A stretch of 64,000 nt of DNA from a phage, in sequence record PQ724392.1; one strand, written 5' to 3'. A program made the translations under genes and the position numbers. This document shows positions 4,330 through 31,154 of the stretch, piece by piece. Positions within the stretch are counted from its first letter, which is position 1, and every line of letters starts with the position of its first letter. Below the pieces are notes generated by a model that ran no database searches, was not told the origin of the DNA, and saw only the letters and a list, made by a program, of their open reading frames with translations.

Positions 4330-4359
4330 ATTATACTCCCTCCATCCTTGGAAGTAAAC
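4330..4359 (-). promoter_or_regulatory. sigma70-type early promoter (GTTTAC, 18 nt, TATAAT)
   Basis: read on minus strand just downstream of previous stop codon. Confidence 0.45.
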
Positions 4360-5454: not shown

Positions 5455-6300
5455 TTAATCCTTAAGCAATTCAATAACGTTCATCAGTTTCTGACGTTCG
5501 GCTTTCGCCGCGTTATTCAGTCCCGACAGACGGAAAATTTCATCATCTTGCTGCTGGATGGTGATGTTAAGCTCTTCAATCTGTTTAGTGAAAAGCTCAA
5601 TTTGCTCTGAATATTTTTCATTGCTTCGCACTGGAACAGGTTCCATTTTAGGAGCTTGTTCTGAAGGGCTGACTTCAAATTGGTCTTTAATTTGGCATAA
5701 TTTAATACGCTGGACGCCTCCAGTTTTAACATCATAAAAGGTAAGAATACCGTGACATTCCAGTACAGACAATGCCAAACGAAGATGGAATTTCCAATTA
5801 TCATATTGACATCCACTAAAAGAAGAAATACTGTATTCACCTTCTTTTTGACCTTTAATAACATTAAATAGTTTATAATCTAAAGAATTATTGGTTTTAA
5901 AGGTCATTTGTTTATCTTGACCGCTTGCTAAACGAGCGCCTAATGCCAATAAACGGCGCTGGTTTTTCCAAAGGTCTTTAACCACTTCATCAAACGTCAT
6001 GGTGTTAATCGCACGACCATAAAGGTCATAACCTTTATTATAATTTTTAAGTAAAATTTTGGCATTAGCACGAGACAACATACCTGAACGATGAAGAGAT
6101 TTCATGACTCGGTCTTCTAATGTAAGAAGACCAGTGGTCTTTTCAAAGATTTTAGTGAATTCAGCGGAATTAGTACAAACATTGAACTTATTCCACATCA
6201 TATATAGAACATTTAAAACCACATCTTTGGTGCTTGGTATACGACCAAATTTAACAACTTTTTTAACTTCAGAACGAATTTCATTAATTGCTTGCGACAT
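5455..6300 (-). CDS. hypothetical protein with C-terminal coiled coil
   Basis: 281-aa ORF. Confidence 0.6.
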   Translation of the reverse strand: MSQAINEIRSEVKKVVKFGRIPSTKDVVLNVLYMMWNKFNVCTNSAEFTKIFEKTTGLLTLEDRVMKSLHRSGMLSRANAKILLKNYNKGYDLYGRAINTMTFDEVVKDLWKNQRRLLALGARLASGQDKQMTFKTNNSLDYKLFNVIKGQKEGEYSISSFSGCQYDNWKFHLRLALSVLECHGILTFYDVKTGGVQRIKLCQIKDQFEVSPSEQAPKMEPVPVRSNEKYSEQIELFTKQIEELNITIQQQDDEIFRLSGLNNAAKAERQKLMNVIELLKD

Positions 6301-6363
6301 AATAATTTCCTCAATAGATTAATCAAAGGTCAGAACCATTATACCATCCTTGGTATAAAGCGT

Positions 6364-6888
6364 TTATGCGAGAACCGTCTTTAAACGCTCTTCAAACTTC
6401 TGAAGGAGTACCTGGCGCTCTGCTCTTTGTTTGGTATAGGTTTCAATACGCTCTGAAGTGAGATTGTATTGTTCATTAACTGATTCCCTCATGAATTCAG
6501 GAATCTCTTTACATGCTTTGATTTCATTGAACTTATCAAGCACCGCTTGTTGTTCAGCAATCAGACCATCATAATATTGGATATCTGATTTGATGTTTTG
6601 TACATCAGATTCAGTAGGCATATTTTTCTTTGCTCTTGTCGCCTGATACTCAGCATTAGTCTCTCTTGACCAGAACAAAGAGCGGTTTTTATTGGTGTTT
6701 TTATACACATCAACAATACCAACTGAATCAACAGTCACAATCCAGTTCCAGGCGTTTTTATAAGTTTGACCGCCTGATACTGTAATCTCACCCGCACAAG
6801 CAACATCATTAAAGAACTTGCTTTGTGCTTCTGATTTAAAATTACCATTATTGTAATTAATCAGATTAAAGATTGATTTCGCTTCCAT
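6364..6888 (-). CDS. hypothetical protein
   Basis: 174-aa ORF preceded by conserved leader cassette. Confidence 0.55.
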   Translation of the reverse strand: MEAKSIFNLINYNNGNFKSEAQSKFFNDVACAGEITVSGGQTYKNAWNWIVTVDSVGIVDVYKNTNKNRSLFWSRETNAEYQATRAKKNMPTESDVQNIKSDIQYYDGLIAEQQAVLDKFNEIKACKEIPEFMRESVNEQYNLTSERIETYTKQRAERQVLLQKFEERLKTVLA

Positions 6889-6924
6889 TTTATTCTCCAG
6901 TATTTGGTAACTCAGTATGGGAAC

Positions 6925-6953
6925 ATTATACGTCTATCCCCATACCATGTACA
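6925..6953 (-). promoter_or_regulatory. early promoter (TGTACA, 17 nt, TATAAT) in conserved leader cassette
   Basis: minus-strand reading; about 37-nt leader to ATG. Confidence 0.5.
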
Positions 6954-6956
6954 CAT

Positions 6957-7259
6957 TTAATTAAAAGTTCTTTCAGTATTTTCACCGCTGAACCAGACGC
7001 TCTTAACGGCTTGCTGGGCGCGGTAGAGCTGCTCCGCCATATAAACACCAAGGGCCTCAGCTTTACGCGTTCTGTGAGCTTCTGCGGCGACCATTTGCAG
7101 CTTATCCATCATGATAAGAGCTTTACATTTCTCCTTCAGAGCATATCGCTTCTTCTCTTCTGGAGTTTTGACCATTCCTCTTAACTTGTGCATTTTCAAC
7201 TTAAAATGGTCAGCAGATTTCAGACATGCATCAATCATGTCAATTTCATACTTTTTCAT
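6957..7259 (-). CDS. hypothetical protein
   Basis: 100-aa ORF. Confidence 0.5.
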   Translation of the reverse strand: MKKYEIDMIDACLKSADHFKLKMHKLRGMVKTPEEKKRYALKEKCKALIMMDKLQMVAAEAHRTRKAEALGVYMAEQLYRAQQAVKSVWFSGENTERTFN

Positions 7260-7265
7260 AATTCC

Positions 7266-7472
7266 TCACTTGCGACGACGTTTTGGTAATGGTTTAGGGA
7301 AGAACATTGCTTTACCTGCAGGGGTTAAAGTCACACGCAAAGCATTACCAATACCAAGGGATGCTTTAACCAGACCTTTGGCTTTTAACTCACCAAATGC
7401 TTGACGTTGTTCAGGGTCACGAGTGTTAACCATCAGACCTTTTTCACCAGCAGCTTTGATTAATTCTAACAT
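7266..7472 (-). CDS. small basic hypothetical protein
   Basis: 68 aa, Lys/Arg-rich C-terminus. Confidence 0.5.
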   Translation of the reverse strand: MLELIKAAGEKGLMVNTRDPEQRQAFGELKAKGLVKASLGIGNALRVTLTPAGKAMFFPKPLPKRRRK

Positions 7473-7513
7473 TTTATTCTCCGTTTGTTTATTTGGTAAC
7501 TCAGTATGGAATC

Positions 7514-7542
7514 ATTATGCCTCATGACCATCTGGTTGTACA
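7514..7542 (-). promoter_or_regulatory. early promoter (TGTACA, 17 nt, CATAAT) in conserved leader cassette
   Basis: same architecture as cassette at 6925. Confidence 0.5.
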
Positions 7543-7589
7543 CATATACTAAATAAAAATACTTAATAAAACCATAAAGGAGAAAGTTT

Positions 7590-8336
7590 ATGATTTTATC
7601 CGGAAGAACTGTTGATGAACTCAATGAAAAAGTCCAGGCTGCCTTGGCTAATAATTGGTATTTGTTTGGTTCTACTATGGTGTTGCCGAATACTCCTACG
7701 GATAGCAAAGAGCGTTTTTTCCAAACTATGTCCAGCTCGGAAACTCAGATACCGGGCCCGCCTGGTCCAAAAGGAGACCCGGGTGTACCAGGACCAAAAG
7801 GAGACCCAGGCGGGGATGGAAAGTCTTCTTATCAGATATGGCTTGACTTGGGAAATACAGGAACTGTTGATGATTTTTTAACTGATACAGCAGGAAAGAG
7901 GGAAAAATCCGAGGTGTTTTGGAGTGGTATAAACGTTCTATTAACTAATGGTGTGACTTCAAACATAATTAGTATTTTAAAGGGGATTCCGCCGACTGCA
8001 GGGACTCTATCTCCGTTTTTTAGAACCACTGATGATAAGTTGTGGCCATATAACCAAGACAGAAGCCTAATGTTTAAACTCAACCTTATTGGTAATTTTA
8101 CAGGAGCCTCGCAAGCTCGAAGTATAACATTAAATTTCGTTGGAACCAACGGAAACACTTATATACAGAATCGTCCGGAAAATGCTACAGATATTTTGTC
8201 TTTTACAACGTTCTTTAGCATTGATAAAGATGGGGCAATGGCAACCAATGGTACAGCTATAACTGTTATGCCAAATGGCGGCAACTTTACAATAACCTCT
8301 GCATTGTTAGTAGCCGAACAAACAGTGACTTCATAA
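7590..8336 (+). CDS. collagen-like repeat protein with beta-rich C-terminal domain
   Basis: 248 aa; AAAGGAG RBS; GPPGPKGDPGVPGPKGDPGGDG Gly-X-Y run; only plus-strand gene in the early block. Confidence 0.7.
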   Translation: MILSGRTVDELNEKVQAALANNWYLFGSTMVLPNTPTDSKERFFQTMSSSETQIPGPPGPKGDPGVPGPKGDPGGDGKSSYQIWLDLGNTGTVDDFLTDTAGKREKSEVFWSGINVLLTNGVTSNIISILKGIPPTAGTLSPFFRTTDDKLWPYNQDRSLMFKLNLIGNFTGASQARSITLNFVGTNGNTYIQNRPENATDILSFTTFFSIDKDGAMATNGTAITVMPNGGNFTITSALLVAEQTVTS

Positions 8337-8360
8337 ACAAAAAAAGGGCCAGATGGCCCT
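8337..8360. terminator. bidirectional hairpin terminator between convergent genes
   Basis: GGGCC..GGCCC stem flanked by A-run and T-rich tail. Confidence 0.5.
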
Positions 8361-8548
8361 TAGATTGCACTCCAAAAATTATGGAATCTTATAGTATTGA
8401 TAGCCCAGTTAACAAACCTGCGAGTTTGCTTGGGAGTTGGTTTGCATGTGTACTTGATATTGACCCGACGACCAGTTTCCCGACAGACTGCTTCGAGATA
8501 CCAGCGTCGACCTTTATTAGGTCTTCCGTATGATAAGAAGACCTTCAT
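8360..8548 (-). CDS. small basic hypothetical protein
   Basis: internal ATG at 8548 chosen to avoid overlap. Confidence 0.4.
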   Translation of the reverse strand: MKVFLSYGRPNKGRRWYLEAVCRETGRRVNIKYTCKPTPKQTRRFVNWAINTIRFHNFWSAI

Positions 8549-8555
8549 TTCTTCA

Positions 8556-9566
8556 TTAACGATAATAGGAATTGTGGTTGTCAAGATATACCTCTTCAAC
8601 AAACTTGTCCCAGAACTTCATGTCCACCTTCGCAGGCATACCGTTCTTAGCAGCCTGGATGGCCAGGACTTCAACTTCATCAACAGTATTTTCCAACAGG
8701 CCTTGAACTACTTTGAAAGGCATATCACCAGCTTTTATTGCTTTAATAATAGAAGCGTTTTTGAGCGGATAAACCAGGTCACCAGTTTGATAGATTTCCT
8801 TCAGCTGATATCCAGCTCGATAAGCATGGCTCAGAGCTTTCCAGTCAATACCTTCATTCGCTTCAGCCTTACGAGCACGTTCACCATATTCGGCATCAAG
8901 TTTATTCAGAGATTGCTTGAGCTCGATTAATGACAAAGTAGTTTGGTATTTACGACCGAGAATAGTATAGAACGTTTGAGGACCTGTTTTCTCATGGTTA
9001 TGAAATATCCATTCACAGAACTCGTTTTCAGGGAGTCTGTGTTTGATATCTTCTACCTTAGTACGTCGTTGCTTAGTAGAACCATCTTCTTGATAATCGA
9101 CCCATTGTTCAGGAATCTGGTTAACAATTTCCAATACACCACGCAGTGCAGCCAATCGAGAACCTTTAACACCATATTTGGAAGCTTGCTTACGGACGTA
9201 CCCCAAATAGGCTTTCATGTTAGTTGTATAGAACCGTGAACGGTTGTCCTGAATAAACTTCCATACATCTGGTAAATCGGATTTGACTACCAGGTCAGCC
9301 GGGGTGTGAATCATATCCAGAGCAACGGTTTCGCCATCGGCCGCCAGTTTAAAGAAATATTTCAGACTATAAAGTTCATGGTCAACATCATCTTTTGTAT
9401 TTTTGGTAGCCGTGTTATTCGTGTTCAGGTTTGTATGATTCATCGCGGTTCCGAGCAGGATATCTCGCGGATGTGGAACAAAGATTTCTTTAAAATCGAC
9501 ATCAGATTCTGGGGTACTTGTTCCATAAAGATGGCTACCGAAGTAGCCTTTCATAACTGTTCTCAT
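8556..9566 (-). CDS. nucleotidyltransferase-fold protein (Pol-beta/MNT-like motif)
   Basis: 336 aa; N-terminal YFGSHLYGTSTPESDVDF (GS, 10 residues, DxD) then helical region. Confidence 0.6.
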   Translation of the reverse strand: MRTVMKGYFGSHLYGTSTPESDVDFKEIFVPHPRDILLGTAMNHTNLNTNNTATKNTKDDVDHELYSLKYFFKLAADGETVALDMIHTPADLVVKSDLPDVWKFIQDNRSRFYTTNMKAYLGYVRKQASKYGVKGSRLAALRGVLEIVNQIPEQWVDYQEDGSTKQRRTKVEDIKHRLPENEFCEWIFHNHEKTGPQTFYTILGRKYQTTLSLIELKQSLNKLDAEYGERARKAEANEGIDWKALSHAYRAGYQLKEIYQTGDLVYPLKNASIIKAIKAGDMPFKVVQGLLENTVDEVEVLAIQAAKNGMPAKVDMKFWDKFVEEVYLDNHNSYYR

Positions 9567-11585: not shown

Positions 11586-11791
11586 TATTCCACCACATAT
11601 GATAATGAGAAAATTGCCGATGAAAGATGAGTAGCATCTTCTTCGCACAGTTCAAATGGAGCTTTCTGTAAGAGTTCAACCACTTCTTCATCAGTGGCAC
11701 TGTCCATAAAGATTGCATAATCATTAAGATAGATAACAACCTCATCACCAGTATTAACTGCATCAATCTTGATATTTTTAATTCTCATCAT
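11585..11791 (-). CDS. hypothetical acidic protein
   Basis: 68 aa; GAGGAG RBS; promoter upstream. Confidence 0.5.
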   Translation of the reverse strand: MMRIKNIKIDAVNTGDEVVIYLNDYAIFMDSATDEEVVELLQKAPFELCEEDATHLSSAIFSLSYVVE

Positions 11792-11816
11792 GTTCTCCTC
11801 AGTAGTTGATGGGATA

Positions 11817-11846
11817 ATAGTACACCCTTTTTATGAGGATGTAAAC
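11817..11846 (-). promoter_or_regulatory. early promoter (GTTTAC, 18 nt, TACTAT)
   Basis: minus-strand reading. Confidence 0.45.
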
Positions 11847-15628: not shown

Positions 15629-16087
15629 TTAGATATAAATCACTTTTGTGCTAATTTTTCCTTCCAGACGATTAGAGTTAACAAACGCCATACGACAACA
15701 CATGGTCGGAGACTTCCCAGGAATAGCGGGGTTAACTGTCATTCCTAACCACAGGTTCTTGTCTGTAATTTCCAGACGAAGTGGACGGTAGTTCACATTC
15801 GGGTCAATTTGTGCTTCAACTTCCGGGAGTGGTTTCATCTCCAAGAATTCAACGATTTCTTTTACATGTGGTGTGATTTTTCCAAACAAGTCAAAAACAT
15901 ATTGTTCATCAATTTCACGTTGGATTGCACGGTCCAACAGATGTGGACTGTACTTAATGAAGAATGCCTCAAGGCCTGCTTCTTTACAAGCCTTGTTGAT
16001 AGCATTATTAATTTTGAGGAACTCCGTTTCAAAAATGCGACGAAGTTTATTGCGGCGAATGTAAACACTTGAATCGATAGTAGTCAT
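15629..16087 (-). CDS. regB: Endoribonuclease RegB
   Basis: 152 aa from ATG 16087 (AAAGGAG RBS); strong similarity to remembered T4 RegB. Confidence 0.85.
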   Translation of the reverse strand: MTTIDSSVYIRRNKLRRIFETEFLKINNAINKACKEAGLEAFFIKYSPHLLDRAIQREIDEQYVFDLFGKITPHVKEIVEFLEMKPLPEVEAQIDPNVNYRPLRLEITDKNLWLGMTVNPAIPGKSPTMCCRMAFVNSNRLEGKISTKVIYI

Positions 16088-16114
16088 AATTATCTCCTTT
16101 TGTTTGATGGGATA

Positions 16115-17915: not shown

Positions 17916-18215
17916 TTAGAAAGAACCAGAGCCTTTAATTGTGTTCTGGCGACCTTTATTTTCTAATTCAGAATGGTCGATTTCATATGCTTGTGCTACG
18001 CCAAAGGCCTTTTTAACTTTAGCTAAAGAGCCTTTAGATGTGACAATATTAAAAGTATTGCCTTTAGTAAAATCAACCAAATCCACTTGTACACCCTGTT
18101 TACCGAGGCTTGCTACAATAGCATCAACATATTGTTGGTCTAAATTGCCCTGGACTCCGATTTGAAATGCTTTGGGAGCTTTGGCTTCAGTAATAAATTC
18201 TTGATACGTTTTCAT
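17916..18215 (-). CDS. internal-protein-like capsid-targeted protein
   Basis: MKTYQEFITE N-terminus matches the T4 internal-protein capsid targeting sequence. Confidence 0.6.
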   Translation of the reverse strand: MKTYQEFITEAKAPKAFQIGVQGNLDQQYVDAIVASLGKQGVQVDLVDFTKGNTFNIVTSKGSLAKVKKAFGVAQAYEIDHSELENKGRQNTIKGSGSF

Positions 18216-18263
18216 TTTATATTCCATTGTTTGGTTGATAAAATCATTATACAACCTTTTTAG

Positions 18264-18735: not shown

Positions 18736-19005
18736 TCATTTCTTAGAGTATTGACCCATAAGTTTAGCGATATCACCCAATTTCTGATTAAACAAATAAT
18801 CCACTTCTTTGCCAGATTTATCTACAATTTGCCACTGACCATTTCCTTTGTTGCCAAAGGTCCAATCACCAACTTTAAATGAAGTTCCATTAACTTTTTT
18901 AATAGAAGTAAACTCAAAGCCTTCTTTCTTAGCTAAAAATGCCATGCGGCTTTCATCTGATTCATTTAATACAGATTCAGCCAAAAATTCTTGATACGTT
19001 TTCAT
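18736..19005 (-). CDS. internal-protein-like capsid-targeted protein
   Basis: MKTYQEFLAE targeting sequence; directly downstream of lysozyme e. Confidence 0.65.
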   Translation of the reverse strand: MKTYQEFLAESVLNESDESRMAFLAKKEGFEFTSIKKVNGTSFKVGDWTFGNKGNGQWQIVDKSGKEVDYLFNQKLGDIAKLMGQYSKK

Positions 19006-21548: not shown

Positions 21549-22508
21549 TTATTTTGTGAAAGGACGAATTAAATGCTGGTTAGCTTTGAAACGTTTAACA
21601 TAGTCTTCGTGACCCAGGGTGTTGTACATATTAACCACTTCCTGGTAATGTTCCCAGGCATACTCGCGGAACCATCCAGAAGTAATGGAGGTGCAGACTT
21701 TTTCCAGCGCAATATGGAAGCTCACGGATGGAGAGATATTGAACTCATTGGGAACCTGCGAACGCTCCAGAGCGAGTACACATGCTTCTTCATAAACCCC
21801 TGCCAGTTTAATAATCTCAGGGAGTGCTTCAAATTTTTCACGCGAGGTCATAACTTCTGAATCATCCTTCATATAGAACTTATATGCAGGCTTATCAGCA
21901 AGCGCCACGGCCTCGTGGATGGAGTCATGGTCAAGGGTATAGATTGTATCATTAAAGAAAGTTTTCTTGCCCACGTCTAGTTTAGGGTGGCTATACGACA
22001 ATGTTTCTGCCTGGCGCTGCAGCATGATTTTCTGCAGTTCATCATTAAGAACAACACCCTTATTGCGAAGGTAATTAATATGACTCATGGTCTTCAGGAA
22101 GAATGGATTGTTCTTCAGGTAACGATGAGACAGTTTAATTGCCAGACAAATATCAGGAGTCGCCCAATAGAAACCTGTAAGACGGTCTTTCTTAATATGA
22201 TTTTCAGCGTATTTCAAGAGACGATAACTTGAGGTGAAATCTTCATCTTGAAGCTCACCAGTAATTTCTCGTACGTTAGTCAGGGCACGGACAATATAAG
22301 CTTCAAAATAGGTTTCTTTTCCATTGTACATACATTTAAAAGCTTGGACATCAGGGTTATCCACAGGAACATGAGCACCGAACATACGTGCTTTAAAGTG
22401 GTTCCAGGAGCCCTGGTCAGCGATAAAGTCCCAATCAGAGTTTTCAATTTTCTGACTTTCAATCAGACCAGCGTTATGTAATGCACGAGAACCAATAACT
22501 AACATCAT
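21549..22508 (-). CDS. hypothetical protein with possible nucleotidyltransferase-like N-terminus
   Basis: 319 aa; VIGSRAL...NSDWDFIA (GS then S-D-x-D). Confidence 0.55.
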   Translation of the reverse strand: MMLVIGSRALHNAGLIESQKIENSDWDFIADQGSWNHFKARMFGAHVPVDNPDVQAFKCMYNGKETYFEAYIVRALTNVREITGELQDEDFTSSYRLLKYAENHIKKDRLTGFYWATPDICLAIKLSHRYLKNNPFFLKTMSHINYLRNKGVVLNDELQKIMLQRQAETLSYSHPKLDVGKKTFFNDTIYTLDHDSIHEAVALADKPAYKFYMKDDSEVMTSREKFEALPEIIKLAGVYEEACVLALERSQVPNEFNISPSVSFHIALEKVCTSITSGWFREYAWEHYQEVVNMYNTLGHEDYVKRFKANQHLIRPFTK

Positions 22509-22900: not shown

Positions 22901-22964
22901 TTTTATTCTCCTGTTCTGATAACGTGATTGTCATCAGTTGATAGGAGTATAGTAACACAGTTTT

Positions 22965-24917: not shown

Positions 24918-25299
24918 TACGAACCTCCTTAATAAATTCTTCGGCACATTTAATTTTGTGCTCTTCTTGTAGGGAAACACATTTTTGTTCCCACTCTTTA
25001 ACTCGCCCACGATATCCTTTATTCATATGATTTTGATGCCACACATTTATCAATATCATACTCAGGACCGTAATAAAAGGAGCTGCGATTATTAGCGCCC
25101 AGGCAACTCCAACACTGATGATATCCATATCCCCACAAAGCACCATCATTATAACCCCAACGATGCACATGGACAAAGCTCCAAATGGAGGCATAAGGTC
25201 TTTATCAATCTTGTCTGCGTATACAAATTTTTCTGGTTTACTTGGCAGATATAGCGTTCGCATTTTGAACCCCTTTAGCATATTCACGACATTCAGCAA
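24904..25299 (-). CDS. membrane protein (2 TM) with FIKEVR tail
   Basis: 131-aa ORF. Confidence 0.5.
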   Translation of the reverse strand: MLNVVNMLKGFKMRTLYLPSKPEKFVYADKIDKDLMPPFGALSMCIVGVIMMVLCGDMDIISVGVAWALIIAAPFITVLSMILINVWHQNHMNKGYRGRVKEWEQKCVSLQEEHKIKCAEEFIKEVRNGTA

Positions 25300-25810
25300 T
25301 AAAACGATTAAGCTTACGTTTCCGTTTACGACCCTCTAATGTATACTCAGCCGCCAAATCAAGAAGCTCATCTTTATCATAATTTTTAATATCAGTATAA
25401 GTTGGGCGGCGGTCAACCATTCCAAAGTGGTCACCATTTTCCAACATCAAATAACACACCAAATGGTCATCATCGTCCGCATTAATAAGCTGCTTATAAT
25501 CACTTGGTTCATTTAACGCATACACAGAATAACTCAGCCCAGCGAATTCCACTCGTTGAATACCCAGATTTACGTCAATAATTTCCAAGGCATCTGCAAA
25601 AGAAAGGTCTTCAGCTAAAGCAAAAATAAAAGGCAATTTGGTAGTATCGCCGCGACTTGTTGTTCTTCTTAAGAAATCATTGGAATAGCCCAAGTCGCGT
25701 CGGATTCTATAAAGAACTGTGTTAGTTTCAGTGGCAAGACCACTACCGCCAAACCATTCCACATTTGATAAAAGATTATCATATAAAGTCATAATTTTCT
25801 CCTCTCCCAA
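25238..25810 (-). CDS. hypothetical protein with FIAECR C-terminal motif
   Basis: 190-aa ORF; start may be internal. Confidence 0.5.
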   Translation of the reverse strand: MGEEKIMTLYDNLLSNVEWFGGSGLATETNTVLYRIRRDLGYSNDFLRRTTSRGDTTKLPFIFALAEDLSFADALEIIDVNLGIQRVEFAGLSYSVYALNEPSDYKQLINADDDDHLVCYLMLENGDHFGMVDRRPTYTDIKNYDKDELLDLAAEYTLEGRKRKRKLNRFIAECREYAKGVQNANAISAK

Positions 25811-25834
25811 TTAGGGGGCTTTGCCCCCTTTATC

Positions 25835-26428
25835 TTACTTAAGTGAATTGATGTATTCTTCAATGTCAGCGGACGTGGTATCCACACCAACCTGTGGACC
25901 TTTGAAAGTTTCAACACGCATCAAGGTGTCTTCAATATCAATCTTAGTCAATGCAGCGATTTCAACAACATCATCTGCAGTCGCAATACCCAGGGCAGAT
26001 ACCTTACGGGTTTCGCGGATGTATTCCAGTTTAACAGCTAGTTCCTGACGAGAATCATCCAGCTCTTTAACTTTCAATTTAATTTCATTACGCATTTCAA
26101 CATAATCGTCTGCCTTCTTACGAAGTTGTTTAGCAGTGCGACGATACAGGAGACCCAGTTTAGCATGGACCTGGACATCCGCGCCATCAGCAATCAGTTT
26201 GCGGATTTCACGCTCTTTTGAGGCGGCGAGTTGGTCTTTTTCATTCGCTAACTCGCGGATGCGTTTTTCTTCATTAACAGACTTAACGTGGGCGGTCTGG
26301 AGCTCAGTAATCTTGTCAATCAGGGTAGACGCCGCTTGAGTATATTGGTCTTCAATAGACAGGTTTTTTGCCATTGCAGTACCCAGTTTGGAGCGGATGA
26401 ATTCAACAAGTTTCTTTAAAGTATTCAT
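25835..26428 (-). CDS. coiled-coil protein (weak PspA-like pattern)
   Basis: 197 aa, largely heptad-rich alpha-helical. Confidence 0.55.
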
Positions 26429-26500
26429 GGTATTTCCTTCAGTTGGTTAATGTTTTATTATCCAGGGAACATACTATCATGTTCCCATTAAAGCACTAAT

Positions 26501-26806
26501 TTAGATTTTGTTTTCCTGCACACCATAATAAAGTTCATCAGACACAATATCCAGGATGCGGCGAACATATTCATCATGGTATTGGCAGTCAAAATCAAAT
26601 GCAACAGTAGTTTCCGCTTCACGAGTGAATTTAACTTGCACATTCAGGTGATTAACAACGTTAGTTAATTTATCAGTAAAGAACTCTTTTGCTACCGCCT
26701 GTTGGACTTGCACTTTAAACTTGGTGTTACGAATCATATTTTCAGCAGATGCGAAATTACCAGTTTTATCAAAGTCAACAAGCGCCAGGTTGATGATGAA
26801 TTTCAT
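26501..26806 (-). CDS. hypothetical protein
   Basis: 101-aa ORF behind leader cassette. Confidence 0.5.
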   Translation of the reverse strand: MKFIINLALVDFDKTGNFASAENMIRNTKFKVQVQQAVAKEFFTDKLTNVVNHLNVQVKFTREAETTVAFDFDCQYHDEYVRRILDIVSDELYYGVQENKI

Positions 26807-26847
26807 TTTATTCTCCAGTGTTTTATTTGGTAACTCAGTATGGAATC

Positions 26848-26877
26848 ATTATGCCTTAAAGCAGGGGGCTTGTATAC
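26848..26877 (-). promoter_or_regulatory. early promoter with -35 (GTATACA) in hairpin loop (PeSL-like cassette)
   Basis: GGGGG..CCCCC hairpin, 17-18 nt, CATAAT, conserved leader. Confidence 0.5.
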
Positions 26878-26889
26878 CCCCTTTTTGAA

Positions 26890-27333
26890 TTAAATTTCAA
26901 ATTCTTTGCGGAAGTTGGAAGCATAAGACTGAACTGATGCTTTGTTGAATCCAAACTCACGCACAATCATATCAATAACAGCTCTGCGAGCAGCACCATT
27001 AGACATATTAACAGTTTTGAACATATCATAGCATAAATCTTTGTTGCTCATACCGGAGCGTTTAGGTGCCTTACGTTCAGCTTTTGGTTCAGCTTTAGGA
27101 GTAGGTTTAACTTCTGGTTTAACCTGTCCATCATTCAGACCTTTAAAAATTTTACCTGCCAGAGTTGCCAGTTTAGCAGCTTCGCCACGAGTGATACCAA
27201 ATACTGCCGGGTTAAATGAAATACCTTCAGCTGCCAGACGTTTGAAGAACATACGTGCTGCGGATTGTGCTTCAGCTTCAGAAGAGTTGTTTAATGCCAG
27301 CTTAACGTACTTAACCAGTTTTGAAGTTTTCAT
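26890..27333 (-). CDS. hypothetical protein, paralog of 27415-27840
   Basis: 147 aa; shared tail GAARRAVID...VQSYASNFRK. Confidence 0.55.
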   Translation of the reverse strand: MKTSKLVKYVKLALNNSSEAEAQSAARMFFKRLAAEGISFNPAVFGITRGEAAKLATLAGKIFKGLNDGQVKPEVKPTPKAEPKAERKAPKRSGMSNKDLCYDMFKTVNMSNGAARRAVIDMIVREFGFNKASVQSYASNFRKEFEI

Positions 27334-27373
27334 TTTATTCTCCAGTGTTTATTTGGTAACTCAGTATGGGATA

Positions 27374-27403
27374 ATTATACACTATCCCACCTGGAAGTAA
27401 AAC
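27374..27403 (-). promoter_or_regulatory. early promoter (GTTTTAC, 17 nt, TATAAT) in conserved leader cassette
   Basis: minus-strand reading; -10 within GGGATA..TATCCC hairpin. Confidence 0.5.
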
Positions 27404-27414
27404 ACTTTTCTCAA

Positions 27415-27840
27415 TTATTTTTGAGCTTTGCGGAAGTTGGAAGCATATGACTGAACAACAGTCTTTTTGATATCATGGGTGTTAACCAGAACATCAATCA
27501 GGGCGCGTCGAGCTGCACCATCTGCCATATCAATTTCTGCAAATGCCTGGAAGCAAATGTCACGAGCATTACCAGATTTAGACTGGATTTTTTCTTCTTT
27601 AACTTCTTCAATTGGGAATTCAATCATTTCAGCTTGGATTAATTCAATGATAGATTCTTTTGACTGTTTGGTGTTTACCTTCAGTTCAGAATTAAGGGAC
27701 TTAGCGATGGCAACAATCTGGGTTGAAGTCAGATGAATAAGTGCATCTTCACGAATGCAGATTTCACATACTTCGTCGGCAACCATTTTGTTAGTGATGC
27801 GGGTAACAGAGAATGCAGAAGTCAGGGTCAGGAAGTTCAT
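27415..27840 (-). CDS. hypothetical protein, paralog of 26890-27333
   Basis: ATG 27840 with GGAG RBS; shared C-terminal tail. Confidence 0.55.
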   Translation of the reverse strand: MNFLTLTSAFSVTRITNKMVADEVCEICIREDALIHLTSTQIVAIAKSLNSELKVNTKQSKESIIELIQAEMIEFPIEEVKEEKIQSKSGNARDICFQAFAEIDMADGAARRALIDVLVNTHDIKKTVVQSYASNFRKAQK

Positions 27841-27891
27841 TTTATTTCTCCAAAGTTTTGTTTGATTCAGTGTGTAACTCAGTATGGAATC

Positions 27892-27920
27892 ATTATGCAT
27901 CCAGTCAATTCGGATGTACA
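27892..27920 (-). promoter_or_regulatory. early promoter (TGTACA, 17 nt, CATAAT) in conserved leader cassette
   Basis: third copy of the conserved leader. Confidence 0.5.
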
Positions 27921-27958
27921 CTACTTTTTGAAGAAAATTTCAAATTTATTCGGGGTAT

Positions 27959-27980
27959 AAAAAAGCCCGCAATGCGGGCT
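27959..27980 (-). terminator. rho-independent terminator
   Basis: AGCCCGC..GCGGGCT hairpin followed by U-run on minus strand. Confidence 0.55.
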
Positions 27981-27981
27981 G

Positions 27982-28536
27982 TTAGTTCTTATAAAAGCGG
28001 AACGGATTTATATGAAAGGCGAGCATAGCCTTAGGGATTGGTCGGGACAGAAGACTCTTGAGCTTCCAGCCACAATAAACGCGCAGATAAAAGGTGATTC
28101 CACCGACCTTAAGATAAGGAACAGAAGCAAAAACACCCCAGGCATTATCCGTCCACATCCAGAGCCAGCCATGGTGAGCTTTGTCTGGGGAGCCGGATTC
28201 AACATCAGGATTACCTTTATAATGGAATTCTGAATTGCAATCACGACCAAGCTTGTGGTAAGCAAAATTGTATGCTTTATTTCGCCAGAGCCAGGCTACT
28301 CGTTGGAAGTAAACACCTAACGGCCATTTTCGGATTTTTGACCAACGTTCGACATGACCCCGGTCGCCATCAATCGGATTGTCATATGTCATCATCCAAT
28401 CAAATCCGAACGGAAGTTTACCAGTCTTTTTATTATGGAATGGAACTACAAATGGAGCCAGGATAACGGCCAGAATCATGGAGATAAAATCCAGCGGAAC
28501 TAACAGAATCCAACTCAAATATTTTAACAGTTTCAT
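27982..28536 (-). CDS. membrane-anchored Trp-rich hypothetical protein
   Basis: ATG 28536; N-terminal TM helix; TATAAATC late-like box upstream. Confidence 0.5.
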   Translation of the reverse strand: MKLLKYLSWILLVPLDFISMILAVILAPFVVPFHNKKTGKLPFGFDWMMTYDNPIDGDRGHVERWSKIRKWPLGVYFQRVAWLWRNKAYNFAYHKLGRDCNSEFHYKGNPDVESGSPDKAHHGWLWMWTDNAWGVFASVPYLKVGGITFYLRVYCGWKLKSLLSRPIPKAMLAFHINPFRFYKN

Positions 28537-28560
28537 ACGTTTCTCTTTAGTTGATTTATA

Positions 28561-28587
28561 AAAAAGCCCCAACCTTTCGGAAGGGGC
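28561..28587 (-). terminator. rho-independent terminator
   Basis: GCCCC..GGGGC hairpin with U-run on minus strand. Confidence 0.5.
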
Positions 28588-28625
28588 TATACCTTGTCGG
28601 GGTTCCACCTGCAAGGCAAGTGTTC

Positions 28626-29009
28626 TTATCCGCGAGCGAATGCCATTGCAGCGCGTTCGTTGGCACGGTCGGTGATGTTCAAGAATTTATCACGAGCGAT
28701 TTCGATTGGAGCGCCAACCCAGTCAGCAGCTCCATTACCCGGAGACTGTTTAGGGCGAACCATATAAGTTGAAACTTTGGAACCGGCTAGTTTGGCACCT
28801 GGCGCCGCGGCATTTTTAACGTCTTTAGCTTTGATGCCAAACCCAGTTACGATACCCCAAGAAACGCCATTAACTGGTTTCTTGAACATAACACGGTCAC
28901 CAATTGAAACACCGGCTTTTTCTGGAGCCACTAAAGAAAATTTACCAGCTTCAGTCAGTACAGATTCGGTGATGGTATTGCGATTTAAAAATTCTGCATA
29001 TGTAAGCAT
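28626..29009 (-). CDS. internal-protein-like protein (degenerate targeting sequence)
   Basis: MLTYAEFLNRN N-terminus; perfect TATAAATA about 32 nt upstream. Confidence 0.5.
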   Translation of the reverse strand: MLTYAEFLNRNTITESVLTEAGKFSLVAPEKAGVSIGDRVMFKKPVNGVSWGIVTGFGIKAKDVKNAAAPGAKLAGSKVSTYMVRPKQSPGNGAADWVGAPIEIARDKFLNITDRANERAAMAFARG

Positions 29010-29040
29010 TTTGTTTTTCCATTATTAGGGTTGTTGTTAA

Positions 29041-29048
29041 TATTTATA
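29041..29048 (-). promoter_or_regulatory. T4-type late promoter TATAAATA
   Basis: exact 8-mer on minus strand upstream of 28626-29009. Confidence 0.45.
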
Positions 29049-29241
29049 TTCCATAGTACCGGATGCACCATCCGCTCGGATTTCTCATACTACCGGGCGC
29101 ACCGCCCGCTCTGGAAAAACTCCGTAAAAGGGTGCGCCGTTTCAGCTGTGGTAGTAAAGAACCAGAACACAGTAAAACTGTGGGAGGAACTATACTTCAG
29201 GGAACTTCAGTCCGACGACTTACCGGTAGCGACCCGGTTTC

Positions 29242-29481
29242 TCATTCAATTGTAATAGCTAATTTGACTTTAACAACCTTATAATTGGAATCAAGGTCAT
29301 TGAATTCCATAAAATTTGTTGCTAATCTGCGAGTCGGGAAACTTAGATATTTATTATGCTCAGGTGGAGCAGTTAATGCAAACCATGGGACTTGTTTATC
29401 ATTTTCATCAAACTCATCAAAGCTATAAACCAGCTCGTTGTTGGTTATATCCATAACTGCATATGATTCACTAATAACCAT
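29242..29481 (-). CDS. hypothetical acidic protein
   Basis: ATG 29481 (GAGGA RBS) chosen so ORF does not overlap tRNA. Confidence 0.45.
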   Translation of the reverse strand: MVISESYAVMDITNNELVYSFDEFDENDKQVPWFALTAPPEHNKYLSFPTRRLATNFMEFNDLDSNYKVVKVKLAITIE

Positions 29482-29496
29482 AATATCCTCGGTAAT

Positions 29497-29573
29497 TGGT
29501 CGGGGTGGTGGGATTCTAACCCACAACCTACGGTTTAGAAGACCGTTGCTCTATACAATTGAGCTACACCCCG
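29497..29573 (-). tRNA. tRNA-Arg (anticodon UCU), CCA encoded
   Basis: hand-folded cloverleaf: 7-bp acceptor, D-stem GCTC/GAGC, anticodon loop CTTCTAA, T-arm GTGGG-TTAGAAT-CCCAC. Confidence 0.8.
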
Positions 29574-29575
29574 GG

Positions 29576-29649
29576 TGGCCCCATCCGGACTTGAACCGGA
29601 AACCTGCCAGTTATGAGCCGGATGCTCTAACCAATTGAGCTACAGGGCC
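29576..29649 (-). tRNA. tRNA with CAU anticodon (Met or Ile-lysidine type)
   Basis: hand-folded cloverleaf: acceptor GGCCCTG/TGGGGCC, T-arm TCCGG-TTCAAGT-CCGGA; abuts tRNA-Arg. Confidence 0.75.
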
Positions 29650-30909: not shown

Positions 30910-31095
30910 TTACTCACCTTTGGAGATTTTATCCATAACGAAAGAGATTGAACCAATTAAAAATGCAACTACTAAAGAGATTATATTCTCAGAAGTTGAA
31001 AGCATATTCAACATAAAGCCAGCAAACATGCTAAAACCAAAAGCGGTAACAGCAACAAGGGCAGTAACATTTCTAATTAATTCGCAACGTTTCAT
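30910..31095 (-). CDS. small membrane protein
   Basis: 61 aa, 2 TM; GAGGAG RBS. Confidence 0.45.
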   Translation of the reverse strand: MKRCELIRNVTALVAVTAFGFSMFAGFMLNMLSTSENIISLVVAFLIGSISFVMDKISKGE

Positions 31096-31154
31096 TTTAT
31101 TCTCCTCAGTAGTTGATGGGATAATTATAATGCAGTTATCCCATCGCGTATACT

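Follow-up and report, generated by a model that had tools for sequence, protein, structure and literature searches.

The closest described counterparts of the element analysed here are the promoter-early stem-loops (PeSLs) of the coliphages RB49 and phi1 (Arbiol et al. 2010; PMC2839356), which combine an AT-rich tract, a sigma-70-like early promoter, a Shine-Dalgarno sequence and an ATG with a stem-loop that may span the -10 box, overlap the -35 box or lie upstream. PeSLs occur as many intergenic copies in the same orientation, in variable regions and before small genes of unknown function, and the crossovers of indels and replacements map to the stretch from the -10 box to the ATG, or else to the stem-loop. 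Lineage-specific PeSL and PmSL variants near indels are described for T4/PST and KVP40/nt-1, with degraded or half elements and single-sided cases among them (Comeau, Arbiol and Krisch 2014; PMC4122927, in the sections covered here). We analysed a stretch of 64,000 nucleotides (nt) of phage DNA (PQ724392.1; hereafter the window), in which one cassette of about 75 bp precedes the starts of five small genes on the minus strand (6888, 7472, 26806, 27333 and 27840). We consider it likely that these cassettes are self-contained early-expression units of the PeSL type, each lying before a small, mostly uncharacterised gene.

The cassettes share with the RB49 and phi1 elements all of the properties listed above, and appear, from these sequence-level defining features, to fit the PeSL class. 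They differ from the RB49 and phi1 elements in their -35 box (GTGTAC here, TTGACA there), in the lack, as a rule, of a G-run/C-run stem, in their number of about 13 copies per genome, and in that the transcribed leader is their most conserved part, whereas promoter and stem-loop are the most conserved parts in RB49 and phi1. Furthermore, mini-circles and promoter and terminator activity have been shown experimentally for RB49 and phi1 (PMC2839356), whereas the cassettes described here are known from sequence alone. Like the elements of PMC4122927, they are lineage-specific variants found near indels, and the insertion of a plus-strand gene beside one of them recalls the single-sided cases; they differ in belonging to other genera and in having an initial transcribed core conserved across genera, which is not reported in the sections of that paper considered here. 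The idea of mobile regulatory cassettes of the PeSL type is already published (PMC2839356, PMC4122927), and the sequence family reported here is new to that class. A literature search of partial coverage found no report of PeSLs in Gaprivervirus, the genus concerned.

Five copies of a leader cassette in two early-gene regions

The window derives from a T4-type coliphage of the genus Gaprivervirus (VR7/SP18 group). Its regions 6000–9000 and 25500–29500 are 97.5–98.6% identical over their full length to Escherichia phages ECML-359 and pEC-M719-6WT.2, and 95.3% and 98.3% identical, respectively, to EAWsc9, also over their full length; more distant matches to the same two regions were found in several hundred T4-like records. 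According to the annotation of VR7 and SP18, the first cassette site corresponds to the nrdC.8–nrdC.11 stretch and the second lies between e.4/e.6 and the tRNA genes, both sites being series of small early genes on the minus strand.

Read from 5' to 3', the unit consists of GT(G/A/T)TAC, 17–18 nt, (T/C)ATAAT, the short stretch G/T-A/T-T-T/C, the sequence CCATACTGAGTTAC(C/A), an A-rich stretch of variable length and GGAGAATAAAATG. The stretch CCATACTGAGTTAC, at about -2 to +12, is invariant, and the 3' end of the unit is formed by a Shine-Dalgarno block with the start codon (GGAGAATAAAATG in cassettes A–D and GGAGAAATAAAATG in cassette E). A sigma-70-like early promoter is predicted in all five copies, and a consensus scan recovered the hexamers independently at each of them. 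Cassette A (6886–6954) leads nrdC.8 (174 amino acids [aa], 6364–6888), with the ATG at 6886–6888, GGAGAATAAAA at 6888–6898, the core at 6906–6920, the -10 box TATAAT at 6925–6930 and the -35 box GTGTAC at 6949–6954. Cassette B (7470–7543) leads an open reading frame (ORF) of 68 aa (7266–7472) and has the same parts, in the same order, at 7470–7472, 7472–7482, 7495–7509, 7514–7519 (CATAAT) and 7538–7543 (GTGTAC). In the second region, cassette C (26804–26882, with the repeat match at 26804–26877) leads a 101-aa ORF, its parts being found at 26804–26806, 26806–26816, 26829–26843, 26848–26853 and 26872–26877 (GTATAC). Cassette D (27331–27402) leads a 147-aa ORF (26889–27333), with these parts at 27331–27333, 27333–27343, 27355–27369, 27374–27379 (TATAAT) and 27397–27402. 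Cassette E (27838–27980 including an upstream terminator, with the repeat match at 27838–27921) leads a 141-aa ORF (27415–27840) and is made up of an ATG at 27838–27840, GGAG at 27848–27851, a core with one mismatch at 27873–27887, a -10 box at 27892–27897, a -35 box at 27916–27921 and an AT-rich tract. Such a tract before the -35 box (TTTAAAAAGTA-type) is found in cassette E, in the B copies of the relatives and in most of the copies of phages TH44 and MP1, and in copy B of the window the AT-rich 5' region of the inserted plus-strand gene has taken its place. The genes led by the cassettes belong to no Pfam family, or to PHROG families of unknown function. The first-pass annotation had placed two copies at 6889–6953 and 7473–7542 and related them to the cassette at 26.8–27.9 kb, in agreement with the limits given here for A and B; it had also set the -35 box of copy B about 50 bp from the start of the plus-strand gene, and we find 47 bp between the box at 7538–7543 and the ATG at 7590.

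The 15-mer CCATACTGAGTTACC occurs four times exactly and once with a single mismatch in the window, exclusively on the minus strand. With up to three mismatches allowed, nine matches were found (1.09 expected), the remaining four having two or three mismatches each, and none of 100 shuffles reached nine. Of the 46 columns that do not vary in the alignment of the five cassettes, 38 lie between the -10 box and the ATG, and identity between copies B and C is 92% over 53 nt. For a comparison of identities, twelve early-type promoters of the window (the five of this family and seven others) were anchored on the -10 box. Over the 22 nt following this box, identity was 0.88 within the family and 0.40 to the seven other early promoters, whereas over the 45 nt upstream the corresponding values were 0.44 and 0.40, and over the 18-nt promoter spacer 39% and 32%. 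The near-identity is confined to the stretch from the -10 box to the ATG, and the shared element therefore consists of the start-site region, the leader and the Shine-Dalgarno block, and not of the promoter. The dispersed cassettes had been described as identical, and this holds for their leader halves, which are far more alike than unrelated early promoters are, but not for their promoter halves, which taken by themselves are no more alike than that.

These values bear on the reading that the copies represent a generic early-promoter consensus and no distinct cassette. The -35 box, the -10 box and the start-site CCAT are indeed common to the early promoters at 4359, 11846, 16144, 18275, 31153 and 32429, and the upstream halves are equally alike within and outside the family; the identity of the 22 nt after the -10 box and the restriction of the 15-mer core to the five cassettes refute such a reading, to which we give almost no credit. 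Generic early promoters of this kind also account for the looser copies that the first-pass annotation proposed near 11846, 16144 (the regB promoter) and 32429; these have the hexamers and the start-site CCAT and lack the leader of the family. A second, smaller leader family was observed on the minus strand at 11785–11818 and 31092–31125 (TATCCCATCAACTACTGAGGAGAA..ATG, 91% identity between the two sites). Its 31.1-kb copy also carries GGAGAATAAAA, and the relatives show an indel of 240–605 bp there, with flanking alignments overlapping by 40–55 bp (31090–31144).

It could also be argued that the copies are leftovers of tandem gene duplication, the paralogues having carried their upstream regions along, with no need for a dispersed mobile cassette. 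A C-terminal domain is common to the proteins led by cassettes D and E (44% identity over 73 aa, E=2e-18), and the repeat extends into the 3' ends of the two genes, where 26904–26934 and 27426–27456 are 97% identical. However, the genes led by cassettes A, B and C and by eight other TH44 copies are unrelated and located in distant regions, and nrdC.8, the 68-aa ORF and the 101-aa ORF belong to different PHROG families. Moreover, the promoter spacers of D and E are unrelated although their leaders are identical. We therefore regard duplication as a very unlikely origin of the copies. The C-terminal domain shared by the 147-aa and 141-aa proteins ends in VQSYASNFRK. In the Morganella phage MP1 paper, homologues of VR7_gp147 and SP18_gp147 appear among the proteins detected by virion mass spectrometry, in a list that includes obvious non-structural proteins.

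The distribution of the element was examined beyond the window. The complete genome of the relative TH44 has 13 copies spread over its whole length, all on the early-gene strand and each directly before an ATG. BLAST of the cassette returned 49 records, about 35 of them Gaprivervirus genomes with 9–14 places each, and on these matches the element is confined to Gaprivervirus apart from Morganella phage MP1 (Gualtarvirus) and one Dhakavirus. In MP1, five units stand in tandem and agree with the cassettes in the -35 box, the AT-rich tract and the core, and two of these units lead orthologues of the 141-aa and 147-aa genes; the proteins are 45% and 52% identical to those of the window, and the core CATACTGAGTTA is unchanged. 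Dhakavirus IME341 has a single copy. An exact-pattern scan of IMG/VR recovered the same isolate genomes and one 17-kb metagenomic contig, with no wider family. SP18 has an additional cassette of the family at about 22404–22470, leading a 74-aa ORF (MNTIKAKDV...), and none is found at that place in the window.

Stem-loops accompany the cassettes in several arrangements. In cassettes A, D and B, the promoter spacer pairs with the start-site core and the stem spans the -10 box, with free energies of -18.3, -16.1 (TGGGATA/TATCCCA) and -10.9 kcal/mol, respectively; 0, 2 and 12 of 200 spacer shuffles were as stable. The window, TH44 and MP1 together supplied 23 copies for this comparison; in about half of them a -10-spanning stem was stronger than in spacer-shuffled controls, one MP1 copy containing a perfect 13-bp inverted repeat, and the other half have no significant stem of this type, so stem strength is uneven. 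The spacer-shuffle control is the valid test here, and a covariation count derived from single-sequence minimum free energy (MFE) pairs was discarded as circular, since it counts predicted pairs only. Cassette C has a GGGGG/CCCCC stem-loop (26863–26882) with the -35 box in its loop, and a terminator lies 45 bp upstream of cassette E (27964–27980). For cassette B, the corresponding part is a G+C-rich terminator stem-loop on the minus strand at 8344–8361 (AAGGGCCATCTGGCCCTT followed by a T run), displaced by the plus-strand gene: in relatives lacking this gene, copy B is preceded by a stop codon, GGACCCTTCGGGGTCC, a T run and ATTTTAAAAAGTA, and then the -35 box. Both terminators, 8344–8361 and 27964–27980, were recovered by an independent scan.

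The leader RNA, its RegB-type site and the invariant core

From the usual 7-nt distance to the -10 box, the transcript is predicted to start at the A of CCATAC. The leaders with the first codons are essentially unstructured (-0.4 to -2.7 kcal/mol), with folds weaker than those of shuffled controls. A conserved 5' untranslated region might suggest a structured cis-regulatory RNA, such as a riboswitch, an attenuator or a thermosensor; yet the z-scores of the MFE values are positive, the Rfam covariance models gave no leader match in the window, where only two tRNAs reached the gathering score, and the distance between the core and the Shine-Dalgarno block varies among copies and orthologues. Such an RNA can be dismissed for practical purposes. 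A second sigma-70-like promoter inside the leader (TTACCA, 16–17 nt, TAAAAT) was rejected because of the same variation in spacing. In TH55, the orthologue of cassette B (about 7507–7545) contains a tandem duplication, CAAACGAACAAACGG, between the core and the Shine-Dalgarno block, and cassette B orthologues elsewhere have AAAACTGG or AAACTGG at this place. These length changes look like slippage in the A-rich leader, with the core and the GGAG block remaining fixed.

The Shine-Dalgarno block of the cassettes suggests a further function. In T4, the strong intergenic cleavage sites of RegB/S1 in early mRNAs have the consensus GG*AGRAYARAA (Durand et al. 2006, as presented in the part of PMC3014915 covered here), and RegB acts together with ribosomal protein S1, RNA pairing protecting against the enzyme (PMC3014915). 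The sequence GGAGAATAAAA, at the Shine-Dalgarno position of cassettes A–D, matches this consensus at 11 of 11 positions. GGAGRAYARAA occurs six times exactly in the window, all on the minus strand (0.39 expected), four of these matches being located in cassettes; the sixth, an exact GGAGAATAAAA at 22901–22911, is found at the start of an early gene without a cassette of this family. The phage encodes a RegB endoribonuclease homologue on the minus strand at 15629–16090 (phrog_1323 'endoribonuclease', E=4e-72), and regB is annotated at the same place in VR7 and SP18. Four of the five cassettes thus resemble the strong T4 sites in their full match, their unstructured leader and the presence of regB, but cleavage here is predicted, and the portion of PMC3014915 considered does not place the T4 sites in any repeated mobile cassette. 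Given this match, the unstructured leader and the encoded RegB, the cassette probably sets both the onset and the shut-off of expression, that is, a strong immediate-early start followed by RegB-dependent shut-off, by analogy with what is known of T4. In the MP1 copies the block reads GGAGTC..., and the link with RegB is therefore specific to Gaprivervirus.

The core is identical in 13 paralogous copies that have differing spacers, and neither the promoter hexamers nor the Shine-Dalgarno sequence nor the fold of the leader explains why it is invariant across paralogues and genera. Conserved initial transcribed sequences occur at strong phage promoters. The core may be an initial transcribed sequence of this type, aiding promoter escape, or it may be the 3' arm of the stem-loop. 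An alternative that we consider unlikely, while giving it more weight than the generic-promoter, duplication and structured-RNA readings, is that a phage or host factor specifically recognises the core (CCATACTGAGTTAC, about -2 to +12, or the 12–16 nt CAUACUGAGUUA(C/A)CAAA), the promoter and recombination effects being secondary. The core may be an operator for an early-gene regulator, a tag, binding or processing site at the RNA 5' end, or a dedicated site for a recombination protein or recombination helper. Besides its constancy in copies with differing spacers and the absence of an explanation in promoter, Shine-Dalgarno or RNA-fold requirements, the core overlaps the start site, a position typical of operators, and is the same in MP1 and Dhakavirus IME341, even though the orthologous MP1 proteins are just 45–52% identical. 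On the other side, no protein emerged as a candidate for binding the core, its dyad symmetry does not go beyond ACTNAGT, the scattered crossover points described below argue against site-specific recombination, and the core of about half of the copies is nothing more than the 3' arm of their stem-loop. If it were a recognition site, the core would be a dedicated early regulon tag on about 13 immediate-early genes, and not just portable homology. No convincing opposite-strand copy that might act as an antisense partner was found in the window or in TH44, and an opposite-strand match at TH44 115010 was discarded as the 5' arm of the stem-loop of that cassette. A literature search, also of partial coverage, returned no paper with the core motif in a phage context.

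Indel edges and crossovers among relatives

The window was compared with 50-kb stretches of ten Gaprivervirus genomes and with 9 kb of RZ, all oriented like the window. In VR7, TH22, TH54, TH57 and TH44, the cassettes of the 147-aa and 141-aa genes flank a 369-bp module composed of a 98-aa ORF and one cassette; the module is absent from the window and from five other genomes. The alignments flanking the module overlap by 48 bp inside cassette D (27331–27378), the hallmark of an event involving a pair of direct repeats. A three-way alignment shows cassette D of the window tracking the upstream cassette of TH44 through GGAGAATAAAATG and changing from there to the 147-aa gene. Judged by these alignments, cassette D is a recombinant junction relative to TH44, TH22, TH54, TH57 and VR7.

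The slot upstream of cassette B has at least five different fillings among twelve genomes. In the window it is occupied by an accessory plus-strand gene (7590–8336, 248 aa) whose product combines an Sf6-type tail-needle-knob domain (Pfam PF16532, E=3e-32) with collagen-like repeats (Collagen, E=0.003, below the Pfam cut-off); the gene lies between the terminator stem-loop at 8344–8361 and the -35 box of cassette B. The window shares it with RZ, TH40 and TH54, and seven other genomes lack it. Homology to seven genomes without the gene ends exactly where the -35 box of cassette B has its outer edge (7543), and that to SP18 ends within the cassette, at 7518; a clean presence/absence of 784 bp (7544–8327) is seen in three genomes. 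The gene lacks two flanking cassettes, so homologous exchange from cassette to cassette is not shown in its case. Its upstream region (7544–7589) contains neither a TATAAATA late promoter nor a sigma-70-like site, and it has a good Shine-Dalgarno sequence, AAAGGAG. In SP18, cassette B is a chimera in which an A-type promoter and spacer are joined to a B-type leader, with the switch inside the shared core.

A further event involves terminators. The DUF7338 ORF (27985–28536, minus strand, in a region reaching 28587) is bracketed by the terminators at 27964–27980 and about 28566–28587, both of which end in the 13-mer GGGCTTTTTTATA. This ORF is absent in VR7, SP18, TH54 and TH57, the junction lying within GGGCTTTTTTATA, from terminator to terminator. 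Crossover points are scattered, some close to the ATG, others within the core, at the -35 edge or in the T runs of terminators, a pattern compatible with general homologous or microhomology recombination rather than with a site-specific enzyme. Integron gene cassettes and the 'morons' of lambdoid phages are similar in that single-gene modules arrive with or next to their own expression signals; unlike in integrons, there is no integrase or attC-like site here and crossovers are scattered, and the morons differ in being independent of conserved flanking repeats. The first-pass annotation had proposed dispersed cassettes as recombination substrates that may have brought in neighbouring accessory genes, and had pointed to the insertion boundaries as the place to look. 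Edges in or at cassettes in 10–11 Gaprivervirus genomes (the 369-bp module, positions 7543 and 7518, and the SP18 chimera) lend support to this idea, with the caveats given below.

A comparable use of shared 5' sequences has been described for the internal-protein genes of T4 (Repoila et al. 1994, as summarised in the sections of PMC4122927 covered here), where a short shared 5' sequence of small accessory genes serves as portable homology; the homology there is coding sequence (MKTYQEFI...), unlike the promoter and leader of the cassettes. The internal-protein capsid-targeting start MKTYQEF(I/L) is also found in four small minus-strand genes of the window (17916–18221, 18736–19005, about 31403 and about 31748; repeat family D2). 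At these loci the relatives differ by insertions of 245–824 bp, and flanking alignments overlap by 32–45 bp on 18175–18219. Such overlaps on shared 5' coding sequence indicate portable homology of the type described for the T4 locus. Two other differences among relatives were noted near the second cassette site. VR7 lacks 1.9 kb (window 25232–27143), so that cassette C is missing along with the 101-aa gene it leads and with the 3' part of the 147-aa gene; this deletion, which leaves a truncated ORF of 68 aa, is not bounded by cassettes. In the window, tRNA Arg (TCT; 29497–29573) adjoins tRNA Met (CAT; 29574–29649) on the minus strand; the tRNA set and its flanks vary among relatives, with Arg, Asn and Met in SP18 and Met only in this stretch of VR7.

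Breakpoint clusters were counted in 1000–34000 against the whole sequence, and not intergenic DNA only, as background, and the paired ends of a single event are not independent in this count. Five of the 69 clusters fall in the five cassettes, which represent 1.6% of the sequence (1.09 expected, P=0.005), and the twelve early-promoter units taken together contain ten (2.43 expected, P=1.5e-4), the enrichment in cassettes being 4–5 fold. Both limits of the count weigh against reading the cassettes as PeSL-type units of expression and exchange, and so does the location of 59 of the 69 breakpoints elsewhere. The same is true of several properties of individual copies: copy E agrees with the RegB consensus at 9 of 11 positions only, the MP1 copies have GGAGTC... 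in its place, the stem of cassette C has no T run on the gene strand, and a stem located between the -35 box and the -10 box of cassette E is not significant. Furthermore, every expression signal in this phage is recognised as a match to a consensus, and the persistence of a core of 12–13 nt in MP1, at the level of protein divergence given above, is unexplained by homology acting as a recombination substrate.

Proposed role in expression and gene exchange

With these reservations, reading the cassettes as PeSL-type units leads to the following model. Right after infection, unmodified host RNA polymerase would use the sigma-70-type early promoter with its AT-rich tract, and a transcript beginning at the A of CCATAC would have an unstructured leader of about 25–45 nt with the Shine-Dalgarno sequence embedded in GGAGAATAAAA. 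A burst of expression would likely be followed by inactivation of the mRNA by the RegB of the phage itself. The stem-loop probably insulates the unit from read-through transcription. As the same 25–50 bp recur about 13 times per genome in one orientation, the copies are usable as portable homology, and the very active homologous recombination of the phage could use them in this way, such that single-gene modules would be deleted, inserted or swapped with their expression signals left intact.

The cassettes would extend the PeSL model of modular gene shuffling to a further T4-like genus. With a Shine-Dalgarno block that is also a perfect strong RegB/S1 site, a cassette may fix not only when expression of its gene begins but also when it ends. 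The cassettes mark spots of accessory-gene gain and loss in phages considered for therapy, and they could serve as natural landing pads for engineering.

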